DNA from: Candidatus Enterousia intestinigallinarum
GTDB taxonomy: Bacteria > Pseudomonadota > Alphaproteobacteria > Rs-D84
NCBI GenBank assembly: GCA_018716885.1
Contig: DVJI01000012.1
Location: 175,065 to 239,064, forward strand
Length of the DNA stretch: 64,000 nucleotides
Direction: 5' to 3'
Numbering within the stretch: position 1 is the stretch's first letter; each line of letters begins with the position of its first letter. Positions 1,467 through 61,595 of the stretch are shown here, one piece after another. The notes below the pieces were generated by a model that did not search any database, was not told where the DNA came from, and saw nothing but the letters and a program-made list of their open reading frames with translations. A program made the translations under genes and the position numbers.

Positions 1467-1520
1467 ATCCCCCACACACAACCAAGCAAAGAAACAATCC
1501 CCAAATAAATTGGGGATTGT

Positions 1521-2408
1521 TTAATAAAAACAATGACTATCAAGTTCAAAAGTTCCTTCGGTAGCATTAATAGTCGCATTGCTTGAAATATAACAACCTG
1601 TTATAGATGTATCTCGTGCTAAACGTTTTATATAACCGTCGCCGTATTTTCCTTGATACAACGGACATTTAATGCAACTGGTTGGGCCAAAACCTGAAGA
1701 AACCGGACCATTATAATATCCTGGATTATCATCACACCGATACTCATAAGAACATTTACCTGCTTCGGTACAGGTTACCACTTTTAACAAGCCAGGTTTC
1801 TTATCAGGATCTACGGGCGTGCCCCCCACGACCCATCCTTCACACTGGCTCGCCCGGGTACATTCTCTCGTGTCCTCACAATAAGCCCCCTCAAACGGTC
1901 CATTTATGCATCCATTTATTTCCACATTTTGCAAAACTTGCTTATAACCCGTTTGGCATACATCACAATATTCTATGGGGCCCACCCAACCAAAGTTGTT
2001 TGTACTTAACCATCTGCGTTCACCACTGACACAACCATTTTCATTAGAAATAGGTTCAGTATATCCCCACTCATCATAGCATATATCAGTAGAACTATCA
2101 TTAGCCACACATTCATAGTATTTTAAATCGCCACAGTTTTGCCCCGGCAAGGTTCCGCTGAGTTTCTTGCTATAACCCAATGTACACTCAGCACATTCCC
2201 GATATGCAATGGTTGGTTTTCCGATGCCCGTACCATAACATCGACGGGCAACATCTGGTTTTTCACCAACATTTTGTACCGCACAATTTGCGGGTTCAAG
2301 TGGGCCAATTGTATGAATAGATTCTGGGCACGAGTTCCCATATTGATTTGTTTCCAAACACATCAAAGCATTTGCATTGCTTGCCATACCTAAATACAAA
2401 CACAAACC
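1521..2408 (-). CDS. Cys-rich secreted protein body lacking its own RBS/ATG; completed in frame by inversion of cassette 2409-2494
   Basis: Many Cys. Begins with a signal-peptide h/c region (GLCLYLGMASNANA). C-terminal GCY...EGTFELDSHCFY motif. Confidence 0.8.
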   Translation of the reverse strand, partial: GLCLYLGMASNANALMCLETNQYGNSCPESIHTIGPLEPANCAVQNVGEKPDVARRCYGTGIGKPTIAYRECAECTLGYSKKLSGTLPGQNCGDLKYYECVANDSSTDICYDEWGYTEPISNENGCVSGERRWLSTNNFGWVGPIEYCDVCQTGYKQVLQNVEINGCINGPFEGAYCEDTRECTRASQCEGWVVGGTPVDPDKKPGLLKVVTCTEAGKCSYEYRCDDNPGYYNGPVSSGFGPTSCIKCPLYQGKYGDGYIKRLARDTSITGCYISSNATINATEGTFELDSHCFY

Positions 2409-2494
2409 ACCGTTTTATTTCGGCAAAAATGGAGGATAAAAAAATGCAGAAATCTGGGATTTTTACAAAAATAAAAACACCGATTTTAATCGGT
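2409..2494 (+). promoter_or_regulatory. putative invertible 86-bp RBS/start/signal-peptide cassette, copy 1 (OFF orientation)
   Basis: GGAGG 2431-2435 and ATG 2444 encode MQKSGIFTKIKTPILIG antisense to the gene. Inverted repeat AAACCACCG 2404-2412 / CGGTGGTTT 2491-2499. Near-identical copies at 5587-5672 and 60625-60710. Confidence 0.8.
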
Positions 2495-2517
2495 GGTTTA
2501 TTTTCAGCATTTTTTAT

Positions 2518-2546
2518 ATTATATCCAATATTTCTATATATCGCAA
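2518..2546 (-). promoter_or_regulatory. sigma70-type promoter TTGCGA-17-TATAAT pointing into cassette 1
   Basis: Consensus-like hexamers with 17-bp spacer immediately outside the cassette. Confidence 0.6.
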
Positions 2547-2551
2547 GCAGT

Positions 2552-2746
2552 TTATTCGCCCGCAAATTCCGCGCATAATAAATTATGCCGATAGATATTA
2601 CGCGCCAAATCATCACTGATAACGTACCAGTCATTGGCGCGCCCATAAATCGGCACACACGGCGGGCACGAATTATTCTGCAATGGTGTATTTTTCGCGC
2701 AGGACGCGACGAATATCACACACACCGGTATTAAAAGTTTTCTCAT
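2552..2746 (-). CDS. small lipoprotein, o-spanin (Rz1)-like
   Basis: Lipobox VASC, Pro/Cys-rich, overlaps the 3' end of the upstream TM protein in another frame. Confidence 0.55.
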   Translation of the reverse strand: MRKLLIPVCVIFVASCAKNTPLQNNSCPPCVPIYGRANDWYVISDDLARNIYRHNLLCAEFAGE

Positions 2747-2903
2747 TTATCGCCCCCATTGTTTTTATAATTTCTTGGTTTTGTTTGACGGCAACTTCTG
2801 CGGCACGCGCATTACATTTTTGCGCTGCAACGCGTCCCCCCGCCCAGTACGCACCCACTGCCACAACAACGCATATAAAAAATAAAAAAATATACAGTTT
2901 CAT
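2673..2903 (-). CDS. small membrane protein, i-spanin (Rz)-like
   Basis: N-terminal TM helix followed by an Ala/Gln-rich helical region; overlapped by a lipoprotein gene. Confidence 0.55.
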   Translation of the reverse strand: MKLYIFLFFICVVVAVGAYWAGGRVAAQKCNARAAEVAVKQNQEIIKTMGAINEKTFNTGVCDIRRVLREKYTIAE

Positions 2904-2963
2904 ATCAGATATAAAAAATCCCGCATAGCGGGATTACATTAAATGTTATAAGTTCAAATTGAA

Positions 2964-4232
2964 TTATTGATTCATTGCCGCAAAGAAATCAGCATTTGTT
3001 TTTGTCAGGCGTAATTTATCCAACAGGAATTCCATCGCTTCCAGCGTGCCCATTGGATTGATTATACGGCGCAGGACATACATTTTTGCCAATGTATCCT
3101 TGCCAACCAGCAAATCTTCCTTGCGCGTGCCGGATTTAGTAATATCGATTGCCGGATAAACACGCTTGTCAGACAATTTTCTGTCCAAAATGATTTCGCT
3201 GTTGCCGGTGCCCTTGAACTCTTCAAAAATAACTTCGTCCATTTTTGAACCGGTATCAACCAATGCGGTCGCAATAATGGTCAGCGAACCGCCGCCCTCT
3301 ATATTACGAGCCGCACCAAAGAAACGCTTTGGTCGCTGTAACGCATACGCGTCGACACCACCGGTCAGAACCTTGCCACTGGACGGAACAACCGTATTAT
3401 ACGCACGCCCCAGACGTGTTATAGAATCCAACAGAATAACCACATCCTGGCCGGCTTCTACCAAACGTTTGGCCTTTTCAATAACCATTTCGGCAACCTG
3501 GATATGGCGCGCGGCGGGCTCGTCAAATGTTGACGATATGACTTCGCCCTTTACACTGCGCTGCATATCGGTAACTTCTTCGGGACGTTCATCAATCAAC
3601 AAAACAATCAACTTTACGTCCGGATAATTTGTCGCAATCGAGTGTGCAATATTTTGCAACATAACGGTTTTACCGGTACGCGGGGGCGCAACAATCAAAC
3701 TGCGCTGGCCTTTTCCCGTCGGCGCAATCAGATCGATAACACGTGCGGACAAACTGCGCCCCTTGTCCTTGTCGTCAACGACCTCCATCTTCAGCATTTC
3801 GTCTGGGTACAACGGCGTCATATCATCAAAAGACACACGATGACGCAATTTTTCCGGATCACCACCATTTACACGTTCTATCGTTTCCAACGCGAAATAG
3901 CGTTCAGATTCATTTTGCGGTGCCTGAATTTGTCCCTCGATATAATCACCAGTTTTCAGACCATATTTTTTTATCAGCGCCGGCGACACATACAAATCGT
4001 CCGGGCCAGCCAAATAATTGCTTTCCGGCGCACGCAGGAACCCAAAGCCGTCCGGCATACGTTCCAAAACACCATCACCAATCAAAGTGACCTTGTTATC
4101 TGCGGCAAAGACCCGCATAACCGCAAATCGTAACTGTTGAACATTTAACTGCGCCGGATTTTCAATACCCATATCTTCGGCCATTTTCAACAACTGTTGC
4201 GGCGATTTTGCCTTCAATTCATTTATATGCAT
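2964..4232 (-). CDS. rho: transcription termination factor Rho
   Basis: [41 protein letters not shown] motifs. Confidence 0.99.
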
Positions 4233-4441
4233 AAAAAATCCTTTTTGGAAACGGGGTATAGTGCGAGAATTCGCCCCCCTTGTTGATTTACCCGCTTATT
4301 ATACGCCTTTTTTGACAAAAAGTCAAGTATTGGCAACAAACAATATAAACACAATCGGCAGTACACCGAAACTATTTTCCTTGCATTTTACGGGTTTTAT
4401 TGCTCAAATGATATATAAGATTATAAACAAAGGAAGCGACA

Positions 4442-4906
4442 ATGGCAGGCAGCATAAATAAAGTAATCTTGGTTGGCAACGTGGGTCAGGATCCCCAGGT
4501 TCGCACAATGCAAAGCGGACAGAAAGTGGTCAGTTTTTCACTGGCGACATCAGACCGCTGGCGCGACAGACAAACGGGCGAGCAAAAGGAACAAACCGAA
4601 TGGCATCGTGTTGTAATATTTAACCCAAATTTGGTTGATGTTGCCGAACGTATGTTACAAAAAGGAACGAAGTTGTATCTGGAGGGTTCCCTGCGCACAC
4701 GCAAATGGCAAAATCAACAGGGTATCGACGTTTATACAACCGAAGTTGTTCTGAATCAATTTGCGGGTCAAATGGTAATCTTGGCTGGCGCCAAGAGCTT
4801 GGACGGCGCAGCATCTGGTGGCGATTATGGTCAGCCAGCGGCACCTGCATCAGCCCCACGTGAAGAAATCTCCGTTGCCGACATCGGTGACGACATCCCA
4901 TTTTAA
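4442..4906 (+). CDS. ssb: single-stranded DNA-binding protein
   Basis: INKVILVGN...TEWHRVV, C-terminal DDIPF. Confidence 0.99.
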   Translation: MAGSINKVILVGNVGQDPQVRTMQSGQKVVSFSLATSDRWRDRQTGEQKEQTEWHRVVIFNPNLVDVAERMLQKGTKLYLEGSLRTRKWQNQQGIDVYTTEVVLNQFAGQMVILAGAKSLDGAASGGDYGQPAAPASAPREEISVADIGDDIPF

Positions 4907-4980
4907 TGGAATGGCATCATTATTTAATAATGATGATTTATAATTACACTTATAAAAATCCTGCGAATGCGGGATTTTTA

Positions 4981-5586
4981 TTATTCAGAATAATAACACT
5001 TTTGGGTTAAATCATATATTCCTGTTTCATCGTATATCCCAGTTCCTGGTTCCATATAACAGCCCGTTATATCATCCAAATTGGCTTCACTGCTGGTTGT
5101 TCTATACTGCGACCCCCACAGGTCAATAAAACTGGGGCACTCTTTGCAGCCGATATCCGTACCACCAATGGAAGGCTCATAATAAGTTACATACCATCCT
5201 GATGCACAGGCCCGATCGTCCCCTATTTGAGAAACGGTGCAATATTTTTCCAAATATCCACCAGTAAAAACAAAATGCTTTTTTCTGACCACGCCATCCA
5301 AATATGGATCTGCTTCCCAGTCATATATTGGGAAATTATATTCGCACATGCACACAGAACAACCGGTTTCTTCTGCTTCATAACTGGCTCGGTATACAAA
5401 GGTGTCTTCAGTTGCGGACACAATACAACTAGTATCACTGGAACTGGTGCACATATCCAAGTTATTATATAAAACATTCCATTCTTTATAATCACTGCCA
5501 CAGTTGCAAGTATACTCGGTTGGTTCGTTTGGTGCAGCATTAGACATATTGCATATAAATATTAATGCAATTGCAGAACATAATTG
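4981..5586 (-). CDS. Cys-rich secreted protein body lacking its own RBS/start; completed by inversion of cassette 5587-5672
   Basis: Frame extends 5' of ATG 5547 as QLCSAIALIFICN (h-region) but meets an in-frame TAA inside the cassette. C-terminal GCY..PG...DETGIY....CYY. Confidence 0.8.
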   Translation of the reverse strand, partial: QLCSAIALIFICNMSNAAPNEPTEYTCNCGSDYKEWNVLYNNLDMCTSSSDTSCIVSATEDTFVYRASYEAEETGCSVCMCEYNFPIYDWEADPYLDGVVRKKHFVFTGGYLEKYCTVSQIGDDRACASGWYVTYYEPSIGGTDIGCKECPSFIDLWGSQYRTTSSEANLDDITGCYMEPGTGIYDETGIYDLTQKCYYSE

Positions 5587-5672
5587 ACCGATTTATTTCG
5601 GCAAAAATGGAGGATAAAAAAATGCAGAAATCTGGGATTTTTACAAAAATAAAAACACCGATTTTAATCGGT
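5587..5672 (+). promoter_or_regulatory. putative invertible 86-bp RBS/start/signal-peptide cassette, copy 2 (OFF)
   Basis: GGAGG 5609-5613, ATG 5622; inverted ends ACCGATT 5587-5593 / AATCGGT 5666-5672. Confidence 0.8.
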
Positions 5673-5700
5673 GGTTTATTTTCGGCATTTATTTGATTCT

Positions 5701-5730
5701 ATTTTACCCCAATTTCCACGCCCACGTCAA
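5701..5730 (-). promoter_or_regulatory. promoter TTGACG-18-TAAAAT pointing into cassette 2
   Basis: Same hexamers and GAAATTGGGG spacer end as at 60567-60596. Confidence 0.6.
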
Positions 5731-5814
5731 TTATATTTTTAACATTTTACCCCACCTCACCATGGACAACTTTTTCATCTTGCTTTGCTCAGACACACGC
5801 GGTAACATAATTTT

Positions 5815-6059
5815 GTCGACGGGTGTTCCGTCGATGGGGTGTGGAAACCTCTGCCTAAGCGTCTGAATATAAAAACGCAATGCGCCAAAATGTGCGCACG
5901 TTTTGCAGTATTACGACGAAAAACAAATCTCCTGATTTTCGGGTCAGGAGGGTCGCGAAATACCCAATACGCGGCACAATTCTTAGGATTGTTTCCAACC
6001 TCCTGACCACCAAAGATTTGGTGGTTTTTTGTTTCAACAAAAAATCAGGAGATTGAACT
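5815..6059 (+). ncRNA. c4/CI-like structured leader (antisense-attenuator), copy A
   Basis: Homologous to 14149-14378 and 19764-19960. 5' hairpin, GGAAAC/GTTTCC and CCTAAG/CTTAGG complementary boxes, GGTCAGGAGG/CCTCCTGACC stem, ACCACC/GGTGGT+T terminator; promoter TTGCTT-17-TAACAT at 5780-5808. Confidence 0.65.
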
Positions 6060-6665
6060 ATGAAACATTTTTTACCCTTACTTACCGTCGCCACAATTTC
6101 GGCCGCGTCAGTCATATCTAATGCGTCAGGTATCGTCACCGCCTGTGTTGGAACCCCTGTGTGCCCCACTGGGGCGGGAACCTGTGTGATACTCCGAGCG
6201 CAGGAGCCAACGTGTACATTAGGCGTGATGAGATACTATGACACAACTGGAATATTCTCGTGCAGTCGTTGCGAAACAGGATACGAGCTGACTCAACAAA
6301 GAGCCACTGTTCCAAACTGCTCAAACGAAATATTGTTTAATGTGTGTCGCAAATCTTGTGACGGCACGTGCAGCGATTGTACAACATCGGCCTGGACGGC
6401 CGGCAATACCGGATATCAAAAACGCACATACGCCAGTTGCAATACGGCAACCTGTGTATGCACAAAAAGAACTCAATACCGGTGTGCCGCTGGATATTAT
6501 GGCACATCCAGCAATGGTACGTCCGGGTGCAGCCGCTGTCCCAGTAACGGTTCATCCACTGCGGGCGCAACGGCAATCACGTCGTGTTATTTGCCGTCCG
6601 GCACCACCGGCAGCGACAGTACCGGTTCATATACATATACGTCTAATTGTTATTACAGTAACTAG
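6060..6665 (+). CDS. Cys-rich secreted protein
   Basis: Signal peptide, CAAGYYG/CSRCP motifs, C-terminal SCYLPSG...DSTGSY...CYY. Confidence 0.85.
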   Translation: MKHFLPLLTVATISAASVISNASGIVTACVGTPVCPTGAGTCVILRAQEPTCTLGVMRYYDTTGIFSCSRCETGYELTQQRATVPNCSNEILFNVCRKSCDGTCSDCTTSAWTAGNTGYQKRTYASCNTATCVCTKRTQYRCAAGYYGTSSNGTSGCSRCPSNGSSTAGATAITSCYLPSGTTGSDSTGSYTYTSNCYYSN

Positions 6666-6696
6666 CAACAAAAACGGGGCATATGCCCCGTTTTTA

Positions 6697-9600
6697 TCAG
6701 AACCGATACGATCCTGTTACCTTTATATTATGCAACTGTATCGCGTCATTATATTGATAACGATAATCGATACCGAACTGCAGCCCCACCGCTGACAAGA
6801 ATTCGACGCCGCCACCGATATTAGCCCACAGCGGGTCAATATCAACATCATACTTGGTGTATGTATGTGCCGGTGCGAATTTGTACTTTACGAAGTCCGG
6901 CGCGCCCAACACATCGTATTCAACCCCAATCGACGCATACGGGCGAATCTGGAACCAGGCCGACGGATATATACGCTTTTGTGCAATCAACGAATAACCC
7001 GGTGTCAAAATCAGATATCCATCGGATTGCATATCCATATAATCCTGGCCGGCGGCGTGTTCGGTAACATCAAATCCGAAATTATATCCGACACGCGCAT
7101 ACGCATTGCCGACAATGTACTGATTCAACCAGTCGTGCAGCAAACCCCATTCACTGATAAAGCTGAACGCACTGCCACTGCCGTCGATATGCGACATAAA
7201 TGTCTGGTCGCGTGCGGTATCCAACAAATGGATATCCAGGAACGCGTTTCCATACAGACGCGTCTTTTCGCCCAGAATCTTCATCAAATACCCGCCCAGG
7301 CCGATATTCAAATCATCAACCGTCACATCAACCGTTCCCAACAGCGACTTTCCCGGCAGATACCCCAGTTCAACCGCATCGGAATTATCACTGGACGAAT
7401 TGGATACGCGCGCGGTCAATCCCAGAATCAACGTTTCGGAATCCTGCCAGTCAAAACCGCCGGCAATGCTAAAACGATTACCCTTGGCACGTTTGCCGTC
7501 GGATACGTCCTGGCTAAACATACCGTAATCCGCATCCAACCAGGCCTTTTTCAAATTACGGTTACGATTCCAAATGAATTCGTCGAACATACGGTCTTCG
7601 AAATCACGGAAATTGGTGTGTTCGTTTAACGAAATGTTACCCGCAATTTGTTCCAATTCACGTGCCTGGAACAGACGGCTGAACCGCGCCAATGGATCAC
7701 GTTCACCAGTCATATTATAGTATTCCATACGGTCATACAGTTCATTTGCCATTGTCGCAAAGTTTGTTCCGCGGAATATTTCCGGAATCAATTCAATCGG
7801 CGTATCGTTATAGAATTTTGTATTCAACAACTGACCCGCAATCAAATTGTCCAATGCACCGGCGGAGACATATTCGCCCGTCGTATGATCGGCAACTTCG
7901 GCAACAATCGGCTGAATCTTAAATACTTCAACCGGCCCACCGAAGCGTGGATCAAACACGATATACAAACTGTCTGCGACACCGTCACCGTCCGTATCCC
8001 GTTCCGACAGATATATCGGCAAATCAGAATCGGTTCCATTAAACGCATCAGACGGACGCAATGTATCGGCATAGTCAATGCAAATCGAACCGTCGCCATT
8101 ACAGAACTTTACATCCAAATTGCGCAGTTTATCAAAGCCATCCGAAACATCGATACCCTCTTCTGCGTGCAGCAACCAAATCGCCGTACCGGTATCAACG
8201 GTGTCAAACAGCGTTATCCCAACCTGTGGCTGTGACGCAGCTGAACCATTCACAACACCGGAAACATTTGAAACAAATTTTTCCCCAACGGTAATCATCG
8301 CGGCACCACCAGCGGCATTTGTTATTTCGCCAACTTTGTTGTCGCCGGTAACCTCAACCGTGGACCAATAATTTTGTTTTGATGTATTGCCGGTACCCTC
8401 TTCGTCATACGGCATAATGGCCGCCCACAGGTCGCTGTCATTATTAAACGTATATGTTCCCTTGATATCCAAGCGTTTCAGTCCCCAGAAATCAACCCCG
8501 CCGGAAACATTTCCGTCGATTGTTGCATCAATCCAGGAATCGGGACTGGCCGGATTTTTGGCAAAGCGCAAATCCAACGCGGTCACATCACCCGCAACGT
8601 TTATATCACTGGCATTTATTTGCATACGCCCAGAAACCTGATTTACGCCGGCGACATTAAATTCAGATGCGGTAATTGTATAATCGTCAGAATCAACATT
8701 TACCTCGCCCGCGGAAAGGGTCCCTAAATAATTCTGGTACAGCACGGTATTCTGTGTTGTGAACACGCCATCCGTGGTCAATCCAGCCCCCATCAGTGTT
8801 ATAGTCCCCGCACCCCCCACGGCAAACGTATCAACCGTTGTCACGCCTGCACCGGAATCCAGTGTCAAATTGCCGGTATTTGTAACCTGGGCCAACGTAA
8901 TACCATTATCACTGTGCAGCGCCAATGTGCCGTTATTATCCAAATTAGTTGCGGTAATACCGTCGCCCCCCATATTCAGTTCGGCATCTGTTGCAACCGT
9001 TATATTGCCACCAACTGTAATTGGGCCAGCCACTTCAAACAATGCACTGCCCGCCGTCGCATCATAATTTCCGGTAATGGTAAGCGATTCGGCCGCAAAT
9101 GTCGTATCTGTTGCCAGTAAATTTAATGCCCCGGCCTGCGTGCCCTGTGAAACGTCACCAGTGACAACAACATTTGTCGCGGCAACATTAGCAGTCGCAT
9201 CCGAATCAATATTTACAAATGCACCATTTGCAATATTCAGGCCGCCTATTTGAATATTCGGCAATCCCGTACCATTTGCAGTAATGTTCAGTGTTCCAGA
9301 ATTGGCCATAACATTGCCCATAACCACACGCTGATCCGCGGTCAGGGTTGCTGTTCCAGAATTTGTAACATCACCCAGTGTGATATTTTGCGCGTTTGCA
9401 TTTAATGTACCGGCCGTCAAAACCGCGCCACCAACCGTAACAGCTGACTTTTCCGCGATCAGCTTCAATGTACGCCCAGTGCCCAAATCCAACGCGCCAC
9501 CAATTTCAACCTGAGCCGTATCGGATTTTAACGTTAAATTGGTTGTATCCGCTTCGACAATCAGGCCGTTGTCTGGTTTGTCGGTCAATCCAGTTGCCCC

Positions 9601-11700
9601 GAACCACAAACCATCGGCAAAATCTATTGCACCCTTTGTGGCGGTTATCTGCGTGCCGCGCGCGACCAAGGTACTGCCCGCGCCAACATTCAACGAACCA
9701 ACATTTGCATCATCTGATACAATCTCTATCGTGGCGCCGCCTGTTGCACTCATATCGCCCGCCACTGTCAGTTGGTTTGACGCACTGCCACCAAACACCA
9801 GTTTGTTATTCGCGCCACTGGCCGTAACCGATTCGCCAATCTCGATTATATTCGCAACAAACGTCGCACTACGTGAACCGGCCGATGTCGCCAAAACAGA
9901 GCCGTCAATCTTGATATTGCCGTTTGTCGACGTCATAACAAAGCCCTGACTTCCAGTCGCCGCAATGTTGACATTGCCATTGCCAGACGCAGCAACATCG
10001 CTTAGCGTCATATCGCCGTTTATTTGTATTGTCTGGCCCGCGGTCAGTGAATGCGTTGACCCGTCAATATTCATCGCACCGTCGCCGGTAACATTTATCG
10101 CCCCGTCAACATTGACACCACCAATCAACGCGGTTAAATCAACCACGCCACCAGAAACATCAATCGCACCAATTTGCAAATCACTGCCGTCAGTGTCAGA
10201 ACCGTCAATTATAGTTGAACCGGCCAGATTAGACAGCGTGCCGCCGATGACAATATCCTTGGCATTTATAAGTGTATTTCCGGAAACATTTGTAACATTG
10301 CCAGAAATATTTATTTCACCAATATCGTTCGTCAGTGACGTAATATCCAATTCACCGCCATCATTTGAAACATTTGCTAATTCAACGCGTGTTCCGTTCA
10401 ACGACATAGTCCCACGATTGGACACGTCACCCTGAACCTGCAAAACCGCCGCCGAGTGTATATCGGTATCAGAGCCCTCGAACCCTTCGACACCACCGGA
10501 AATAACGATACCGTCACCGTCGATTTCGGTTGCGGTCATCACCAATTTATTACCACGGTTTGTTACAGAATCGGCGGTAATCGCCTGGGCTGTAATGGTC
10601 ATATTGGCGTTTTCATTATATTGCTGCGTATCAGAATTTATCAGTCCATTTATAACATCAGCGGCAATATTCAAACTGTCGTTTGTTATGTTCAACGTGA
10701 ACTGATTTAACTTATTTGAAAATACATTCAGCCATCTGTCCGTATTTGCACCTGACCCAAATGTCAGCTTACCAGTCGTCAGTGAAAATGTATTATCAAT
10801 CCCCATTGCACTGATATCAAACCCATATTCCAGATTTGTAGTACCAGTTACATTTATGGTCAAATTTCCACTGTTCACAAACGATGCCTCGTTCGTGTTG
10901 CCGCCGGACACGGTCAGATTATCGGCATTCAAAACCATATTGCTGGTGGCGGAATCGTTTTTAACGGTACCACTGACAGTAATATCCCCACCGGCCGTTA
11001 TATTCATTGTTCCACTGGAATTATAAATATTTCCGGCCTTCAGTGTTCCACCGGTTGTAATCGTCATATTTCCGGCACCATCGGTGTTTTCTATATCGCC
11101 ACCGGCCACATCAATAGATTTATCCGCCGAAATTTGCGTTGTTCCGTTTCCAGAATTATGAAAACCACCCATCTTCAACGCAACGTCATCACCAGTCAAC
11201 GCACCAGCAACATCCAAAACCGTATCGCCCCCGGTAACATTTATTGCACCGGTCTGCATAGTTTTGGCCGTAACCGACAGGCCGTTCGCGGCGGCGATAC
11301 TGCCGTCAACCTTGAACAGGTCCGCATCACGCACGGTCAGACGTCCATCGGCGTTTATCGACGTGAACGACATATTTATATTATTGTTTTGTGTATTTTG
11401 CAGATTTAACGAATAGCCGTCGTTAATATACAATGCGCCGCCGGTAATATCCGCATAAGACGTTATTGTAAAATTATCACGAATAATATTCGTGCCAGCA
11501 TACAGCGTATTCGGTTCCAATGGACTGGGGATGTCAACACCGATATTCATCCCAACAACATTAATTCCGTCACTGGCGACATAGCCGTACGAATTATCGC
11601 CACTTATGCTACCCGCGCCAATCACGCCGCCGGTAAAGGGTGCCGCCTGTACCCCCAGCGGAGCCAGGCACAACATAAAAAATATTGTCTTTTTCATCAT
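6697..11700 (-). CDS. large autotransporter-like surface protein (Gly/Asn/Thr-rich beta-helical passenger, C-terminal beta-barrel)
   Basis: 1667 aa, signal peptide, repetitive G/N/T-rich passenger, amphipathic C-terminal strands ending YRF. Confidence 0.8.
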   Translation of the reverse strand: MMKKTIFFMLCLAPLGVQAAPFTGGVIGAGSISGDNSYGYVASDGINVVGMNIGVDIPSPLEPNTLYAGTNIIRDNFTITSYADITGGALYINDGYSLNLQNTQNNNINMSFTSINADGRLTVRDADLFKVDGSIAAANGLSVTAKTMQTGAINVTGGDTVLDVAGALTGDDVALKMGGFHNSGNGTTQISADKSIDVAGGDIENTDGAGNMTITTGGTLKAGNIYNSSGTMNITAGGDITVSGTVKNDSATSNMVLNADNLTVSGGNTNEASFVNSGNLTINVTGTTNLEYGFDISAMGIDNTFSLTTGKLTFGSGANTDRWLNVFSNKLNQFTLNITNDSLNIAADVINGLINSDTQQYNENANMTITAQAITADSVTNRGNKLVMTATEIDGDGIVISGGVEGFEGSDTDIHSAAVLQVQGDVSNRGTMSLNGTRVELANVSNDGGELDITSLTNDIGEINISGNVTNVSGNTLINAKDIVIGGTLSNLAGSTIIDGSDTDGSDLQIGAIDVSGGVVDLTALIGGVNVDGAINVTGDGAMNIDGSTHSLTAGQTIQINGDMTLSDVAASGNGNVNIAATGSQGFVMTSTNGNIKIDGSVLATSAGSRSATFVANIIEIGESVTASGANNKLVFGGSASNQLTVAGDMSATGGATIEIVSDDANVGSLNVGAGSTLVARGTQITATKGAIDFADGLWFGATGLTDKPDNGLIVEADTTNLTLKSDTAQVEIGGALDLGTGRTLKLIAEKSAVTVGGAVLTAGTLNANAQNITLGDVTNSGTATLTADQRVVMGNVMANSGTLNITANGTGLPNIQIGGLNIANGAFVNIDSDATANVAATNVVVTGDVSQGTQAGALNLLATDTTFAAESLTITGNYDATAGSALFEVAGPITVGGNITVATDAELNMGGDGITATNLDNNGTLALHSDNGITLAQVTNTGNLTLDSGAGVTTVDTFAVGGAGTITLMGAGLTTDGVFTTQNTVLYQNYLGTLSAGEVNVDSDDYTITASEFNVAGVNQVSGRMQINASDINVAGDVTALDLRFAKNPASPDSWIDATIDGNVSGGVDFWGLKRLDIKGTYTFNNDSDLWAAIMPYDEEGTGNTSKQNYWSTVEVTGDNKVGEITNAAGGAAMITVGEKFVSNVSGVVNGSAASQPQVGITLFDTVDTGTAIWLLHAEEGIDVSDGFDKLRNLDVKFCNGDGSICIDYADTLRPSDAFNGTDSDLPIYLSERDTDGDGVADSLYIVFDPRFGGPVEVFKIQPIVAEVADHTTGEYVSAGALDNLIAGQLLNTKFYNDTPIELIPEIFRGTNFATMANELYDRMEYYNMTGERDPLARFSRLFQARELEQIAGNISLNEHTNFRDFEDRMFDEFIWNRNRNLKKAWLDADYGMFSQDVSDGKRAKGNRFSIAGGFDWQDSETLILGLTARVSNSSSDNSDAVELGYLPGKSLLGTVDVTVDDLNIGLGGYLMKILGEKTRLYGNAFLDIHLLDTARDQTFMSHIDGSGSAFSFISEWGLLHDWLNQYIVGNAYARVGYNFGFDVTEHAAGQDYMDMQSDGYLILTPGYSLIAQKRIYPSAWFQIRPYASIGVEYDVLGAPDFVKYKFAPAHTYTKYDVDIDPLWANIGGGVEFLSAVGLQFGIDYRYQYNDAIQLHNIKVTGSYRF

Positions 11701-36160: not shown

Positions 36161-37996
36161 ATGAAAATTGTACGTACATTTTTAATATTTTGCGCTATCG
36201 CAGTGACCGCATCAAATGCGGGCGCGTTTCAAATTTCGCCACAAACGTCTAATAAAAACTGTACTGACACGGAATACAGAAGACAGCACCCAGAAAAATG
36301 CCCATCTTTTTTGTACACTGCGGCACCGATATTATCGGGTGCAACCGTACTGGGTGGCGCGATCGCACTAATTGGCTTGTCTGGGGCTGCGGGTGGAAGC
36401 GACAGTGCCACGGAATATTACCAGCCCACCCTGGCCGCACCGGACTATGTAGGTGGCGACGTAAGTTCATTACAACTGGCCGCGGTAACATCGGCACCAG
36501 AATACGAAAAAAATCTGACACAGTATAACGACATACGTCTGGCGTATTCTATTGCACGCGGATACACAGGACGCGGCACAATAATTGCCGTTTTGGACGC
36601 TGGTCTGGATTCTTGGCACGGGGCGGCCGTCACGGCCGTGGCCGGTGGTGCCATTGCACCAAACGCAATCGTAAATTCATATAAAATCGCCAATAATCTG
36701 GATTTCGTTTCATACCGTGAAATTGGTGATGCAATCGGACACGCGACAGACGCAAACGTATATAACGCCAGTTGGTCTGTGCCAATGCGTGCAAATGATT
36801 TGCGGTCGCGCAATCAACTGTCAAATCTGACCGATGCAAATTTTGTGAACCAAATGTCCGCGGCAGCCGCGCGCGACGCAATATTTGTATGGGCCGCTGG
36901 CAATGATTCCGACAAACAAAGCAGTGCCCTGTCCGCGATACCAGTTGTAATGCCTGAAATGCGCGGTCACTTTATAAACGTTGTTGCCTGGGACAGCGCA
37001 ACGGGCGCCCTGGCCGAATACAGCAACGCGTGCGGTATAACCGCCAACTGGTGTATAACAGCCCCGGGCAGCAACATAGACACCGGCGCATCAATCGCCA
37101 ACGGCACCAGTTTTGCCACCCCGATAGTATCTGCCGCCGTTGCCGTAATACGCGAAGCATTTCCCTATATGACCGCGCCCCAGATAACAAATTTATTGTT
37201 TGAAACAGCGCGCGATTTGGGCACGCCCGGCGTTGACGCCGTCTACGGTCACGGAATGCTGGATTTGGAACGCGCAACGCGCCCGGTTGGCGCGCCCCTT
37301 GTACCCATAGATGGCGGCGCAATGCAACCATTACAAACGGCGCGTGTATCTGGTGCGATTGCACATAACATAATGGACGCCAACCCGAAATTTGCATACT
37401 TTGACAAATACGGGCGTGCATTTGACGCAAAATTATCAGATGTTATTGAAATAAAAAATCCGGGACTGGGATTTCAGCGTCTGCGCGCAACAGAAGACAT
37501 AAAAATTGCAGAAATTGGAAATTTTGAAATGGGACTGGCCAACAGCGATATCGCCATCGGCGACGGATTTTTGCAAATACGCGACAATAATCTGTTTGGA
37601 TTTGTCGGCACACAAAATGATTTTGAAATCGGGCAATTAAAATTGACCCAGCGCGCCCGCCTGGCGTTCGGGGCGCCACGCGCATCACAAAATTCGATGA
37701 TAAGCAACCTGTCGAACATATATACCGCGTCAATCGATGTATCTGCCAATATCGGCGACTGGTCATTCGGCATATCTGTTCCGGACACGATAATTGGTGG
37801 CACAATGAATTTACACCTGCCAACGGGGCGCGCGGACAACGGCGCCATAATATATAATGATTACGCAGTTGATATGCGTACGCGTCCATCAATCGAATAT
37901 TCTGTATCATATCGAGCTTTTACCGCCAGTTTTGTTGACAATCCATACGGCACGGATGAATTTTTCATTATGACCCGCGGCCGTATAAAGTTCTAG
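36161..37996 (+). CDS. S8 (subtilisin-like) secreted serine peptidase
   Basis: Triad motifs VLDAG, HG, GTSFATP; AAGN oxyanion hole; YGHG.LD. Confidence 0.92.
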   Translation: MKIVRTFLIFCAIAVTASNAGAFQISPQTSNKNCTDTEYRRQHPEKCPSFLYTAAPILSGATVLGGAIALIGLSGAAGGSDSATEYYQPTLAAPDYVGGDVSSLQLAAVTSAPEYEKNLTQYNDIRLAYSIARGYTGRGTIIAVLDAGLDSWHGAAVTAVAGGAIAPNAIVNSYKIANNLDFVSYREIGDAIGHATDANVYNASWSVPMRANDLRSRNQLSNLTDANFVNQMSAAAARDAIFVWAAGNDSDKQSSALSAIPVVMPEMRGHFINVVAWDSATGALAEYSNACGITANWCITAPGSNIDTGASIANGTSFATPIVSAAVAVIREAFPYMTAPQITNLLFETARDLGTPGVDAVYGHGMLDLERATRPVGAPLVPIDGGAMQPLQTARVSGAIAHNIMDANPKFAYFDKYGRAFDAKLSDVIEIKNPGLGFQRLRATEDIKIAEIGNFEMGLANSDIAIGDGFLQIRDNNLFGFVGTQNDFEIGQLKLTQRARLAFGAPRASQNSMISNLSNIYTASIDVSANIGDWSFGISVPDTIIGGTMNLHLPTGRADNGAIIYNDYAVDMRTRPSIEYSVSYRAFTASFVDNPYGTDEFFIMTRGRIKF

Positions 37997-38628
37997 GCAA
38001 CTTCATTATTCGCCACCTGTTCTGGTATATCGGACACCAAACCGCGTTCTTCAATAAACTTTGACAAAGTATCCCGATGCACCCGCAAACGCCGTGCAAT
38101 TTCCTTTTTTTTACTGCCGTCGGCTAATTTTTGAACAATATATTTCTCACGTCCTTCTAACTTGCAGGCATTGCGACTGCCCTGGGGGCGGCCGACACGT
38201 TTACCTTCGGCACGAACACGGGCCAATGCTTCCTTGGTTCGTTGCGAAATCAAATTGCGTTCAATTTCCGCAGACAACCCGAACGCAAAGGCCAAAACTT
38301 TACTGGTTATATCAGACCCCAACCGATAATTATCCTTTATCGTCCATATTCGCGCACCAATGTTCATACAATGATGCAAAATACTCATTATTTGTAATAA
38401 ATTACGCCCAAGCCGTGACAGCTCGGACGCAATTATTAAATCATCTTTTTGAATTCTTTTTATCAACCGTCCTAATTTTCTTTTATTCAGGTCTTTGGTC
38501 GCGGAAATAGTTTCTTCTATCCAACAATCGATTACCAAGTCCTGCTTTTCACAAAACTTTTGGATTTCAAATCGCTGATTTTCCGTTGTTTGGTGGTCAG
38601 TCGACACACGTATATAGCCATATATCAC
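37993..38628 (-). CDS. serine DNA invertase, Mpi (multiple promoter invertase) family
   Basis: YGYIRVST catalytic motif, Q..ENQRFEI, SELSRLGRNL, WTIKDNYRLG.DI.SKVLAFAFGLSAEIERNLISQRTKEALAR (recognised as Mpi-like), C-terminal HTH; GTG start with AAGGAG. Confidence 0.9.
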   Translation of the reverse strand: MIYGYIRVSTDHQTTENQRFEIQKFCEKQDLVIDCWIEETISATKDLNKRKLGRLIKRIQKDDLIIASELSRLGRNLLQIMSILHHCMNIGARIWTIKDNYRLGSDITSKVLAFAFGLSAEIERNLISQRTKEALARVRAEGKRVGRPQGSRNACKLEGREKYIVQKLADGSKKKEIARRLRVHRDTLSKFIEERGLVSDIPEQVANNEVA

Positions 38629-60510: not shown

Positions 60511-60566
60511 ATTCCTTTCCCTTTGCGCCGAAAACAAACGGTCGATAAGGAACGTCAAAAATGGTG

Positions 60567-60596
60567 TTGACGCAGACGCAGAAATTGGGGTAAAAT
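60567..60596 (+). promoter_or_regulatory. promoter TTGACG-18-TAAAAT pointing into cassette 3
   Basis: Conserved with 5701-5730. Confidence 0.6.
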
Positions 60597-60624
60597 GAAA
60601 TTAAACAAATGCCGAAAATAAACC

Positions 60625-60710
60625 ACCGATAAAAATCGGTGTTTTTATTTTTGTAAAAATCCCTGATTTCTGCATTTTTTTACTCCCCATTTTTGCCGAA
60701 AAAAATCGGT
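60625..60710 (-). promoter_or_regulatory. putative invertible 86-bp RBS/start/signal-peptide cassette, copy 3 (OFF)
   Basis: Minus-strand GGGGAG + ATG (60675) encoding MQKSGIFTKIKTPIFIG; ends ACCGAT 60625-60630 / ATCGGT 60705-60710. Confidence 0.8.
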
Positions 60711-61595
60711 CAGTTTTGTACGGCATTTATTTCGGGATTATTGATTACATCAACCAGTATTGCGACCCCCGGTGTTACAGATGCTGGCCAGTATAGTAAT
60801 ACCTGCGAACAGCAAACTTGCGATGTTATTACCCATCCACAACAAGATACTTCGGGTACCCTACCCGCAAGTATCGTCGAATGTGCAACCGGGACAGATC
60901 TTTGCTATTCATCCGGTTATATGGGGAATTTAAGTGGCCACAGAAAAACATCTTGTACCAGTTGTCCATCTGGCTATGAGTTAAAAGAAGTATCTGGCGT
61001 ATCAACAAAGCAACGTGATTGTCGCGTAACATATAATATATGCGTTGCCGAACCAGAAGATCCATTGGAAAACTGTCCATCAAATTGCAAATATGCAACC
61101 TGGACCACCGACACCAGCCAGGTCGGTCGTCAAAAACGCTGCAATACAACAAATGGCAAGTGTGAATACAGATGCATTCCGAATTTTTATGATGCGTCCG
61201 CACTTACTGGTGGAACATATTGCCGCCCGTGTCCAGATAATGTGCTGGCCGAAGCTTGTTCAGGATATGATGTAGAATACGGTACATTATGCTGTGAACG
61301 TGGGTATTATATGCAGACCGAAGAAAAATCTACATCATCTGGCGGCATTATAATAGGTACAAGATATTATGACGTTACTTGCCCGCGTTGTCCGTCGTTG
61401 GGCGGAGTGTACGGAACGACACCGATAAATACGTGTGTAAGCTCTGTTACTGCCTGTTATATACCGGCAAACACGTCGATTCGTGACACAGTCGGCACAT
61501 ATCAGTTCACCAGCAACTGTAGATATACCACAACCGGAACAAGCACAGGTACCATAACACCAGTTCAACCAGGTACAGTTGTCGGAACAAATTAG
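60711..61595 (+). CDS. Cys-rich secreted protein body; completed by inversion of cassette 60625-60710 (ORF-track TTG start at 60693 has no RBS)
   Basis: Begins QFCTAFISGLLITSTSIA (h/c region); C-terminal ACYIPAN...DTVGTY....CRY. Confidence 0.8.
   Translation, partial: QFCTAFISGLLITSTSIATPGVTDAGQYSNTCEQQTCDVITHPQQDTSGTLPASIVECATGTDLCYSSGYMGNLSGHRKTSCTSCPSGYELKEVSGVSTKQRDCRVTYNICVAEPEDPLENCPSNCKYATWTTDTSQVGRQKRCNTTNGKCEYRCIPNFYDASALTGGTYCRPCPDNVLAEACSGYDVEYGTLCCERGYYMQTEEKSTSSGGIIIGTRYYDVTCPRCPSLGGVYGTTPINTCVSSVTACYIPANTSIRDTVGTYQFTSNCRYTTTGTSTGTITPVQPGTVVGTN

Follow-up and report, generated by a model that had tools for sequence, protein, structure and literature searches.

A putative invertible leader cassette of 84 nucleotides in front of a secreted cysteine-rich protein gene in Candidatus Enterousia intestinigallinarum

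The DNA analysed here is a stretch of 64,000 nucleotides (nt) from Candidatus Enterousia intestinigallinarum (NCBI GenBank assembly GCA_018716885.1, contig DVJI01000012.1, positions 175,065 to 239,064 of the forward strand), which is referred to as the window and numbered from its first letter. The genome holding it, G000, comprises 919 kilobases (kb) in 13 contigs and is 98% complete; C numbers denote its contigs. Three copies of a short cassette were found in the window, and the one under study, copy 2 (locus L006), lies between a promoter and a minus-strand gene for a cysteine-rich protein. In what follows, L stands for the leader module or cassette, P for a promoter module, L006 and similar labels for numbered cassette loci, and P0001 and similar labels for proteins (features are collected in Table 1). 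L of copy 2 is an 86-base segment that is reversed relative to the gene behind it. Its 17 leader codons, which from their sequence appear to encode the n-region of a signal peptide, are followed in the present orientation by a stop after 7 further codons. The reading frame of the gene itself contains a TAA two codons before its junction with L, confirming an earlier note on this DNA in which an in-frame stop, and no start, had been described ahead of the hydrophobic stretch. The gene-side arm of site B (5586-5572) doubles as the coding start of the hydrophobic core, and the first in-frame ATG of the body is reached at 5547, giving an open reading frame (ORF) of 188 amino acids (aa; 4981..5547). 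When 5587-5672 was flipped in silico, leader and body were joined in frame as a single 218-aa ORF consisting of 17 leader and 201 body residues, as the earlier note had anticipated. The same flip turns the promoter-side junction into the predicted 32-nt imperfect dyad centred on AC, composed of the reverse-complemented arm 5603-5589 and the arm 5687-5673, and the resemblance claimed between the gene-side and promoter-side arms was borne out at 10 of 15 positions.

In its present orientation, L of copy 2 also contributes a hairpin directly downstream of the promoter, for which a terminator scan gave a 7-base-pair stem with four G-C pairs and a T-run, and a folding energy of -15.7 kcal/mol (z -4.2) that none of 200 shuffles equalled. 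No arm motif was seen upstream of the copy-2 promoter in a reading of the local sequence and, as there is no recombination site upstream of it, this promoter was taken to be fixed. Across the window, a 13-nt arm motif matched 15 times at up to 2 mismatches, against 5.2 matches expected, and none of 100 shuffles reached 15. A search of 5400-6200 with Rfam gave no match at the gathering score.

Further cassettes were located by BLAST of the copy-2 region against G000, in which 10 cassettes and some fragments were found. Seven of these were OFF, one was ON and two were degenerate. For seven of the nine OFF-oriented cassettes, flipping in silico produced an in-frame precursor of 160-324 aa, in which the 17-residue leader runs into a hydrophobic stretch followed by a cleavage-like motif and a mature part rich in cysteine. 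At C10:44k and C13:102.9k the centre is decayed or the leader ATG is missing, and the genes downstream of these two cassettes have their own starts. The ON cassette, at C10:245.0-245.2k, serves a minus-strand gene, X, in which 269 codons are open past the junction. The palindromic promoter junction that had been predicted for an inverted cassette is present both in natural ON copies and at gene Y beside X. Spacing between the two site centres is 84 nt in seven of nine L modules of G000 and in the ON copy at X, 85 nt at C10:44k and 83 nt at C13:102.9k. The absence of a start upstream, reported for copy 2 in the earlier note, holds for copies 1 and 2, both of which have an in-frame stop in the arm. 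In copy 3 (L-side arm, 60693-60710), C13:19.4k and C4:19.3k an in-frame TTG without a stop stands in the arm; these TTG codons lack a Shine-Dalgarno sequence and lie behind the terminator. An alignment of copy 2 with 17 other cassettes (A1, 18 cassettes in all) was used to build a sequence-only model, R1.

Table 1. Features of the copy-2 locus and of related elements in the window (window coordinates).
Feature	Coordinates	Strand	Remarks
Body of controlled gene	4981..5586	-	201 codons open from junction; hydrophobic core, cleavage-site-like motif, cysteine-rich mature part
Site B	5572..5603	-	L-side arm 5603-5589, central GT 5588-5587, gene-side arm 5586-5572
Leader module L, copy 2, OFF	5587..5672		Minus-strand bounds AC 5672-5671 and GT 5588-5587; 84 nt centre to centre
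Translation-initiation unit inside L, wrong strand	5609..5672	+	Shine-Dalgarno 5609-5614, ATG 5622-5624, 17 leader codons 5622-5672
Terminator-like hairpin and T-run	5646..5673	-	Hairpin 5673-5656; OFF orientation only; about 30 nt past promoter
Promoter-side arm (half-site) of site A	5673..5687	-	Near-invariant in all G000 cassettes; A1 columns 1-15
Promoter of copy 2	5701..5730	-	-35/-10 pair, 18-nt spacer; 10/12 consensus positions match
Copy 1 of L, OFF	2409..2494		Before gene 1521-2408 (-); flip gives 312 aa
Promoter module P of copy 3	60541..60626		84 nt from GT centre to AC centre
Copy 3 of L, OFF	60625..60710		Before gene 60711-61595 (+); flip gives 311 aa
Candidate invertase, 211-aa small serine recombinase, C-terminal helix-turn-helix	37993..38628	-	Resolvase domain, Gin match

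The cassette might be regarded as a small element, mobile or repetitive, or as a terminator repeat, lodged between promoters and genes, its in-frame leader being coincidental. Such an element would be in keeping with the occurrence of arm-derived palindromes away from genes (for example C10:55810-55841, beside a transfer RNA (tRNA) gene) and with the lack of a leader ATG in about 25 of the 78 cassettes classified below. It does not account for in-frame fusions in 7/9 cassettes of G000, for gene bodies without a start of their own, or for ON copies that are called as full proteins in public data, and was judged highly improbable.

Relatives were searched with R1 in a set of 100 same-genus genomes (101 including G000). 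Matches were obtained in 69 of the 101 genomes at E <= 1e-3, and 33 of the 100 relatives had a best match at E <= 1e-8, the threshold at which a relative was counted as cassette-bearing; most of these had 4-31 matches. Seventy-eight loci from 10 genomes were then classified, comprising 60 further top-scoring R1 loci (8 genomes) and 18 earlier ones, a set chosen by score and not at random. Intact centres with an in-frame leader ATG were present in 47, no leader ATG was found where the script looked in 25, and no GT centre and no AC centre were found in 5 and 1, respectively. A cassette was scored as ON if 100 or more codons were open as it now stands and not after a flip, and as OFF if a frame of that length opened only on flipping. 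On this basis the 47 intact cassettes included 31 in the OFF state and 6 in the ON state (L007, L028, L032, L104, L110 and L115); 3 were open on both sides, with the present frame running through P into a divergent gene, and 7 were open on neither side. Two additional ON copies, L116 and L137, have a variant centre. The copy at L110 is a complete ON arrangement with promoter, near-perfect dyad, ribosome-binding site, leader, GT and hydrophobic core, and has no terminator between promoter and gene.

Both states were also encountered among proteins. ON copies appear as full proteins in public data (P0005, P0006, P0010, P0013, P0021 and P0035), and among 14 of the 26 matches to X, 5 homologues have the leader N-terminus, 6 start within the arm in the manner of OFF copies, and the remaining 3 show N-termini of their own. 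P0035 consists of the leader fused at residue 18 to a body identical at 268 of 270 positions to that of the gene behind an OFF cassette in genome G080. P0003 starts inside the arm, as OFF copies do, and is 95% identical to the ON gene X of G000. On the strength of these two contrasts, near-identical organisms appear to differ in cassette orientation. A metagenome scan with the cassette core pattern gave two contigs, L138 and L139, which are orthologues of copy 1 and C13:11.9k; both are OFF, as in G000, and no polymorphism was seen at these two loci. As far as comparison of sequences reaches, the anatomy, the in-frame logic and the site structure are in place, as are both states among paralogues, among species and among near-identical strains, and we infer that the switch operates within populations.

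It was also considered that the orientations could be the outcome of rare rearrangements between short inverted repeats, with no programmed switch, in which case copy 2 would be an effectively silenced gene. This would explain why a single state per locus was observed in every assembly or contig set examined, why most copies are OFF (31/47), and why some cassettes have decayed (L023 and L035). Rare rearrangement would not, however, be expected to leave module length fixed at 84/85 nt, dyad sites conserved and arms co-varying by species, nor to keep the gene bodies of at least 31 OFF copies open and in frame. Furthermore, assemblies that are 99% and 95% identical differ in state, and repeats of 4-7 nt are poor substrates for homologous recombination. 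This explanation was accordingly regarded as quite unlikely.

The architecture of the sites bears on how inversion might be carried out. Each site is made up of two 15-nt arms in inverted orientation around a 2-nt centre, forming a 32-nt imperfect dyad on AC; near-perfect dyads occur naturally in L019, L007 and L110, and the dyad of G017 is perfect over 14 nt on each side with its axis on AC. Arms vary between species, while dyad, centre and spacing are kept (85 nt in G017, G003 and G022). The constant 84/85-nt spacing may reflect helical phasing, 84 nt being about eight turns. A1 shows no variation at columns 16, 18 and 19, and conservation reaches at least 90% at columns 17, 100 and 101. The left centre is AA, TC, GA, TA or CC in 11 loci, in 9 of which the right centre is complementary, L116 and L117 being the two that do not fit; identity therefore runs through the centre, as it would in any inverted repeat. 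In agreement with the earlier note, the partner sites of copies 2 and 3, X and C13:19.4k become identical at AC and differ immediately 5' of it. A further difference follows 3-4 nt beyond AC in copy 1, L009 and L025, and the stretch over which partner sites are reliably identical shrinks to about 3 nt, AC among them.

Tyrosine recombinases need a common overlap region of 6-8 nt and, because partner identity is so short, no such overlap is present around the dyad in the partner sites. This argues against inversion of the segment by one of the two Xer-like tyrosine recombinases of G000, in a manner resembling the vsa, vpma and mpl systems of mycoplasmas. Two Phage_integrase genes are present in G000 (C13:101149, 288 aa; C10:4517, 309 aa), one Xer-like gene lies approximately 1.2 kb from the degenerate cassette at C13:102.9k, and the arms around a short spacer could also be read as a core-type site. 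A bacterium needs two Xer-type genes for chromosome dimer resolution alone, however, and a tyrosine recombinase was considered unlikely. A 2-nt exchange at the dyad axis would fit the short partner identity, which favours this mode of exchange. A serine recombinase with its crossover at AC is the mechanism considered most likely, with moderate confidence. Of the two parts of the earlier proposal, the invertible leader is supported by natural ON copies and by the occurrence of nearly identical genes in both states in different assemblies; the serine mechanism with an AC crossover would be consistent with the data.

Three Resolvase-domain matches and two Xer-like tyrosine recombinases were found in G000. 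The 211-aa recombinase encoded in the window matches PF00239 (Resolvase) at 8e-32 over residues 2-143, with weak helix-turn-helix matches at 160-193. Its best solved relative is the Gin invertase (E 1e-15, full length, aligned over 1-189), and residues 1-18 align with the Gin N-terminus, catalytic serine motif included. Of the 100 same-genus genomes, 36 encode an orthologue with at least 76% identity, namely 31 of the 33 cassette-bearing genomes and 5 of the 67 others, counts of a kind that kinship inflates; no other small recombinase follows the distribution of the cassette. Judged on these grounds, the Gin-like recombinase (37993-38628) is a reasonably probable candidate for an invertase acting in trans. 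A 530-aa large serine recombinase on C6 was rejected for this role, being patchy and unlinked (15 of 33 cassette-bearing and 17 of 67 other genomes), and the third Resolvase-domain match, on C7, is a fragment. The closest named relatives of the 211-aa protein are encoded in metagenome-assembled genomes labelled Alphaproteobacteria, Ca. Enterousia or Rickettsiales (76-90% identity). Within the same genus and order, genomes were observed to have 1-4 small serine recombinases that are paralogous, with identities of about 40-67%. Proteins at 61-68% identity turn up in records of Bacteroidales, Prevotella, Treponema and Clostridia, in many cases at the end of a contig, a distribution that suggests a horizontally spread recombinase family.

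We consider it very probable that 5587-5672 is an invertible leader cassette that switches a secreted cysteine-rich protein by site-specific inversion, and that it is OFF in this genome. In the OFF state, the promoter (5730-5701) would transcribe about 30 nt into the terminator hairpin supplied by L, and the gene body would be left without a ribosome-binding site and start. Inversion would remove the terminator and create at the promoter-side junction the 32-nt near-palindrome, probably a 5' stem-loop without a U-run. The flipped L would then supply a Shine-Dalgarno sequence, an ATG and 17 codons, joined in frame via GT to the hydrophobic core, and the fusion product would carry a complete signal peptide. 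The Gin-like enzyme, acting in trans, would cut at the central AC with a 2-nt stagger.

Several observations weigh against this interpretation. The strain contrasts of P0035 and P0003 rest on protein N-termini and not on source DNA, and the copy-2 protein itself is represented in the protein database only by its start-less 188-aa form, together with one 48% relative. Sequencing runs containing window sequence were mostly chicken-gut metagenomes, and the assembled contigs of four of the 24 runs (X4, X5, X10 and the RNA run X16) were placed on window positions 1500-7000. Contigs of X10 (record 2) and X5 (record 29), the runs of two other studies, bridge 5587 in the OFF form. No strand-changing joint was found over 1500-7000 in the contigs of X4, X5, X10 and X16, and no read or contig with both orientations in one sample was found, only contigs having been examined. 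The junction test put forward in the earlier note, a switch point at AC, was made on contigs, which showed the OFF form at copy 2. With regard to the sites, the inverted repeat of copy 2 is perfect over no more than 7 nt, and in the ON copy L116 the centres of the two sites seem to differ from each other. To our knowledge, 84 nt from centre to centre is shorter than any invertible segment, and looping would be strained. As a P-L pair has outer sites that form a direct repeat, deletion would compete with inversion unless prevented. With regard to the enzyme, about 32 kb separate the recombinase gene from copy 2, no cassette was found within 1.5 kb of this gene in G000 or of its orthologues (25 further flanking loci), and co-occurrence within one genus may reflect shared descent. 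Because kinship inflates the counts and the gene never adjoins a cassette, the assignment of this enzyme is one that we infer.

The contigs of the sequencing runs break off at the edges of the cassette, a pattern for which the repeat is explanation enough. In the RNA contigs of X16, the copy-2 gene body (4996-5547) was uncovered and rho/ssb and the copy-1 gene were covered; the uncovered part is not evidence. The joints 5674-6633, 5703-6670, 5712-4954 and others were considered as inversions and rejected, since their short sides measure 25-31 nt and the picture they give is one of repeats and of an indel of about 960 nt between strains. Contigs of X10 and X16 join approximately 5674/5703 to approximately 6633/6670, with a depth of 0 over 6100-6467, and some strains seem to be without about 960 nt near 5674-6670. 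In relatives, cassettes often lie at extreme contig ends (G116:C6:22-135, G069:C5:169-281 and G091:C32:2-82). Assemblies therefore tend to break at cassettes, and such breaks could come from the repeat or from mixed orientations.

In addition to L, a second module was recognised. Four P modules in G000 are flanked by the shared sites and have promoter-like hexamers inside, and their spacing is 84 nt in all four cases (beside X, at copy 3, at C10:44k and at C13:11.9k). The P module of copy 3 now faces L/Z, away from a divergent secreted-protein gene starting at about 60510 (-). The promoter beside X points in the opposite direction, to gene Y, through the palindromic junction, and its P segment is likewise bounded by GT and AC centres 84 nt apart. 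A full L'-P-L array is carried by G080. The design is one of two equal-sized modules, in which P can face either neighbour and L gates one neighbour and terminates when reversed. Each gene in G000 has its own promoter and its own L; a single shared expression site of the vsa type was not encountered.

Pfam gave no family for four cassette-gated proteins, the copy-2 protein (P0001) included, and a metagenome scan for relatives of the copy-2 protein returned none. Atlas features pointed to ephrin-receptor-like or TNFR-like cysteine repeats, a weak match at 0.84 that lies below the 0.9 lead level. Repeated Cys patterns are shared by the cassette-gated proteins, and P0001, P0003, P0029-P0035 and the product of 6060-6665 share a C-terminal motif in which a Cys is followed by aromatic, Ser and acidic residues at the very end. 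Gene callers give cassette genes in truncated or arm-started form (P0001, P0003, P0029 and P0034). As L measures 84 nt (28 codons), an ATG in the promoter-side arm can read through the reversed L in frame into the gene, and P0034 is a protein call of this kind, running from an arm ATG through the reversed L. Arm-ATG and TTG reads thus lead gene callers to several false N-termini for cassette-gated proteins, and through such truncated and arm-start calls the secretome of these uncultured gut bacteria is systematically misread.

Beside the copy-2 locus, 5900-6030 (+) is a GC-rich structured stretch that Rfam matches to sRNA-Xcc1 at 32 bits, short of the gathering score of 53. It precedes 6060-6665 (+), another secreted cysteine-rich gene of 201 aa without a Pfam match. 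A 1667-aa ORF at 6697-11700 (-), also without a Pfam match, adjoins the locus. Palindromes of the arm motif that lie away from leader cassettes were noted at C10:55810-55841 (beside the tRNA gene), C11:30269-30367, C11:33935-34046 and C2:37451-37464, and could be solo sites, relics or plain terminators. Cassettes of the same length and with the same sites, but with no leader ATG and a downstream gene that has its own start, were seen at L035 (C13:102888-102999) and 24 other loci. These variants may be invertible terminators and nothing else; a part of the 25 results from faulty centre finding, as L116 and L137 are ON copies with an AA centre.

Among known systems, the candidate enzyme resembles Hin, Gin, Cin and Pin in being a small serine recombinase with a C-terminal helix-turn-helix, Gin being its closest solved relative. 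The sites recall the hix/gix type, as they are imperfect dyads with two half-sites around a non-palindromic 2-nt centre, in inverted orientation. Hin/Gin-type sites measure 26 nt and the segments they bound are about 1-3 kb, whereas the sites described here measure 32 nt, the segments 84 nt, the targets are dispersed and number dozens, and the recombinase gene is not beside its target. No enhancer or Fis partner was identified, none having been searched for, and one is hard to picture with 84-nt segments. In the Mpi system of Bacteroides, one serine recombinase reportedly inverts many dispersed promoters. The proposed trans-acting enzyme, the many loci with shared sites and the surface or secreted molecules of a gut organism are reminiscent of that system, with P as the invertible promoter, but the second module here flips a translation start and the N-terminus of a signal peptide, and the invertible modules of Bacteroides are said to be over twice the size of those found here. 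The cwpV locus of Clostridioides difficile is comparable in that a terminator stands between promoter and gene in the OFF orientation only; it reportedly keeps its own start codon, is inverted by a tyrosine recombinase and is a single locus.

The mycoplasma systems share with the present one a small genome, a multigene surface family and site-specific inversion. In the portion of the source available, vsa of M. pulmonis is described as a promoter, ribosome-binding site and 5' coding part joined to silent 3' genes, with a single expression site containing 714 nt of coding sequence, and mpl of M. penetrans as genes each switched independently by its own small invertible element; vsa, vpma of M. 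agalactiae and mpl are there attributed to tyrosine recombinases encoded beside the locus (PMC2268961). Unlike in vsa, each gene here has its own 51-nt leader, separate from the promoter. The closest likeness in kind is to partial intergenic invertons, as site A is intergenic and site B overlaps the first codons of the gene body; those described in the portion of the source available are mostly long, shufflon-like domain swaps, and the main text, in that portion, makes no mention of a start codon or signal peptide (PMC10028968). The proposed leader/promoter inversion system would be a variation on the partial intergenic inverton, which is itself already known. A literature search, supplements excluded, returned no description of an 84-nt leader cassette or of a paired P/L design. 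Ca. Enterousia belongs to the order Rs-D84 and has genomes mostly under 1 Mb, and inversion, phase variation and recombinases go unmentioned for it in the part of the main text available (PMC12306168).

If the switch is real, it would be a very compact form of phase variation, in which the flipping unit is a translation start with an export signal that becomes a terminator when reversed. An 84-nt inversion by a serine recombinase would test the minimum size of the synaptic loop. A broader proposal, which we hold tentatively and with slightly more doubt than conviction, is that a genus of gut Alphaproteobacteria with genomes below 1 Mb may possess a combinatorial switchboard for its surface or secretome, built from P and L modules of 84-85 nt at 10-30 loci and served in trans by one Gin-like invertase. 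Were this so, the enzyme would have to act on segments much shorter than the DNA persistence length, with no enhancer next to them. Together with the promoter module, a real switch would allow a reduced genome to vary a secreted cysteine-rich family one locus at a time, each gene requiring about 170 nt.

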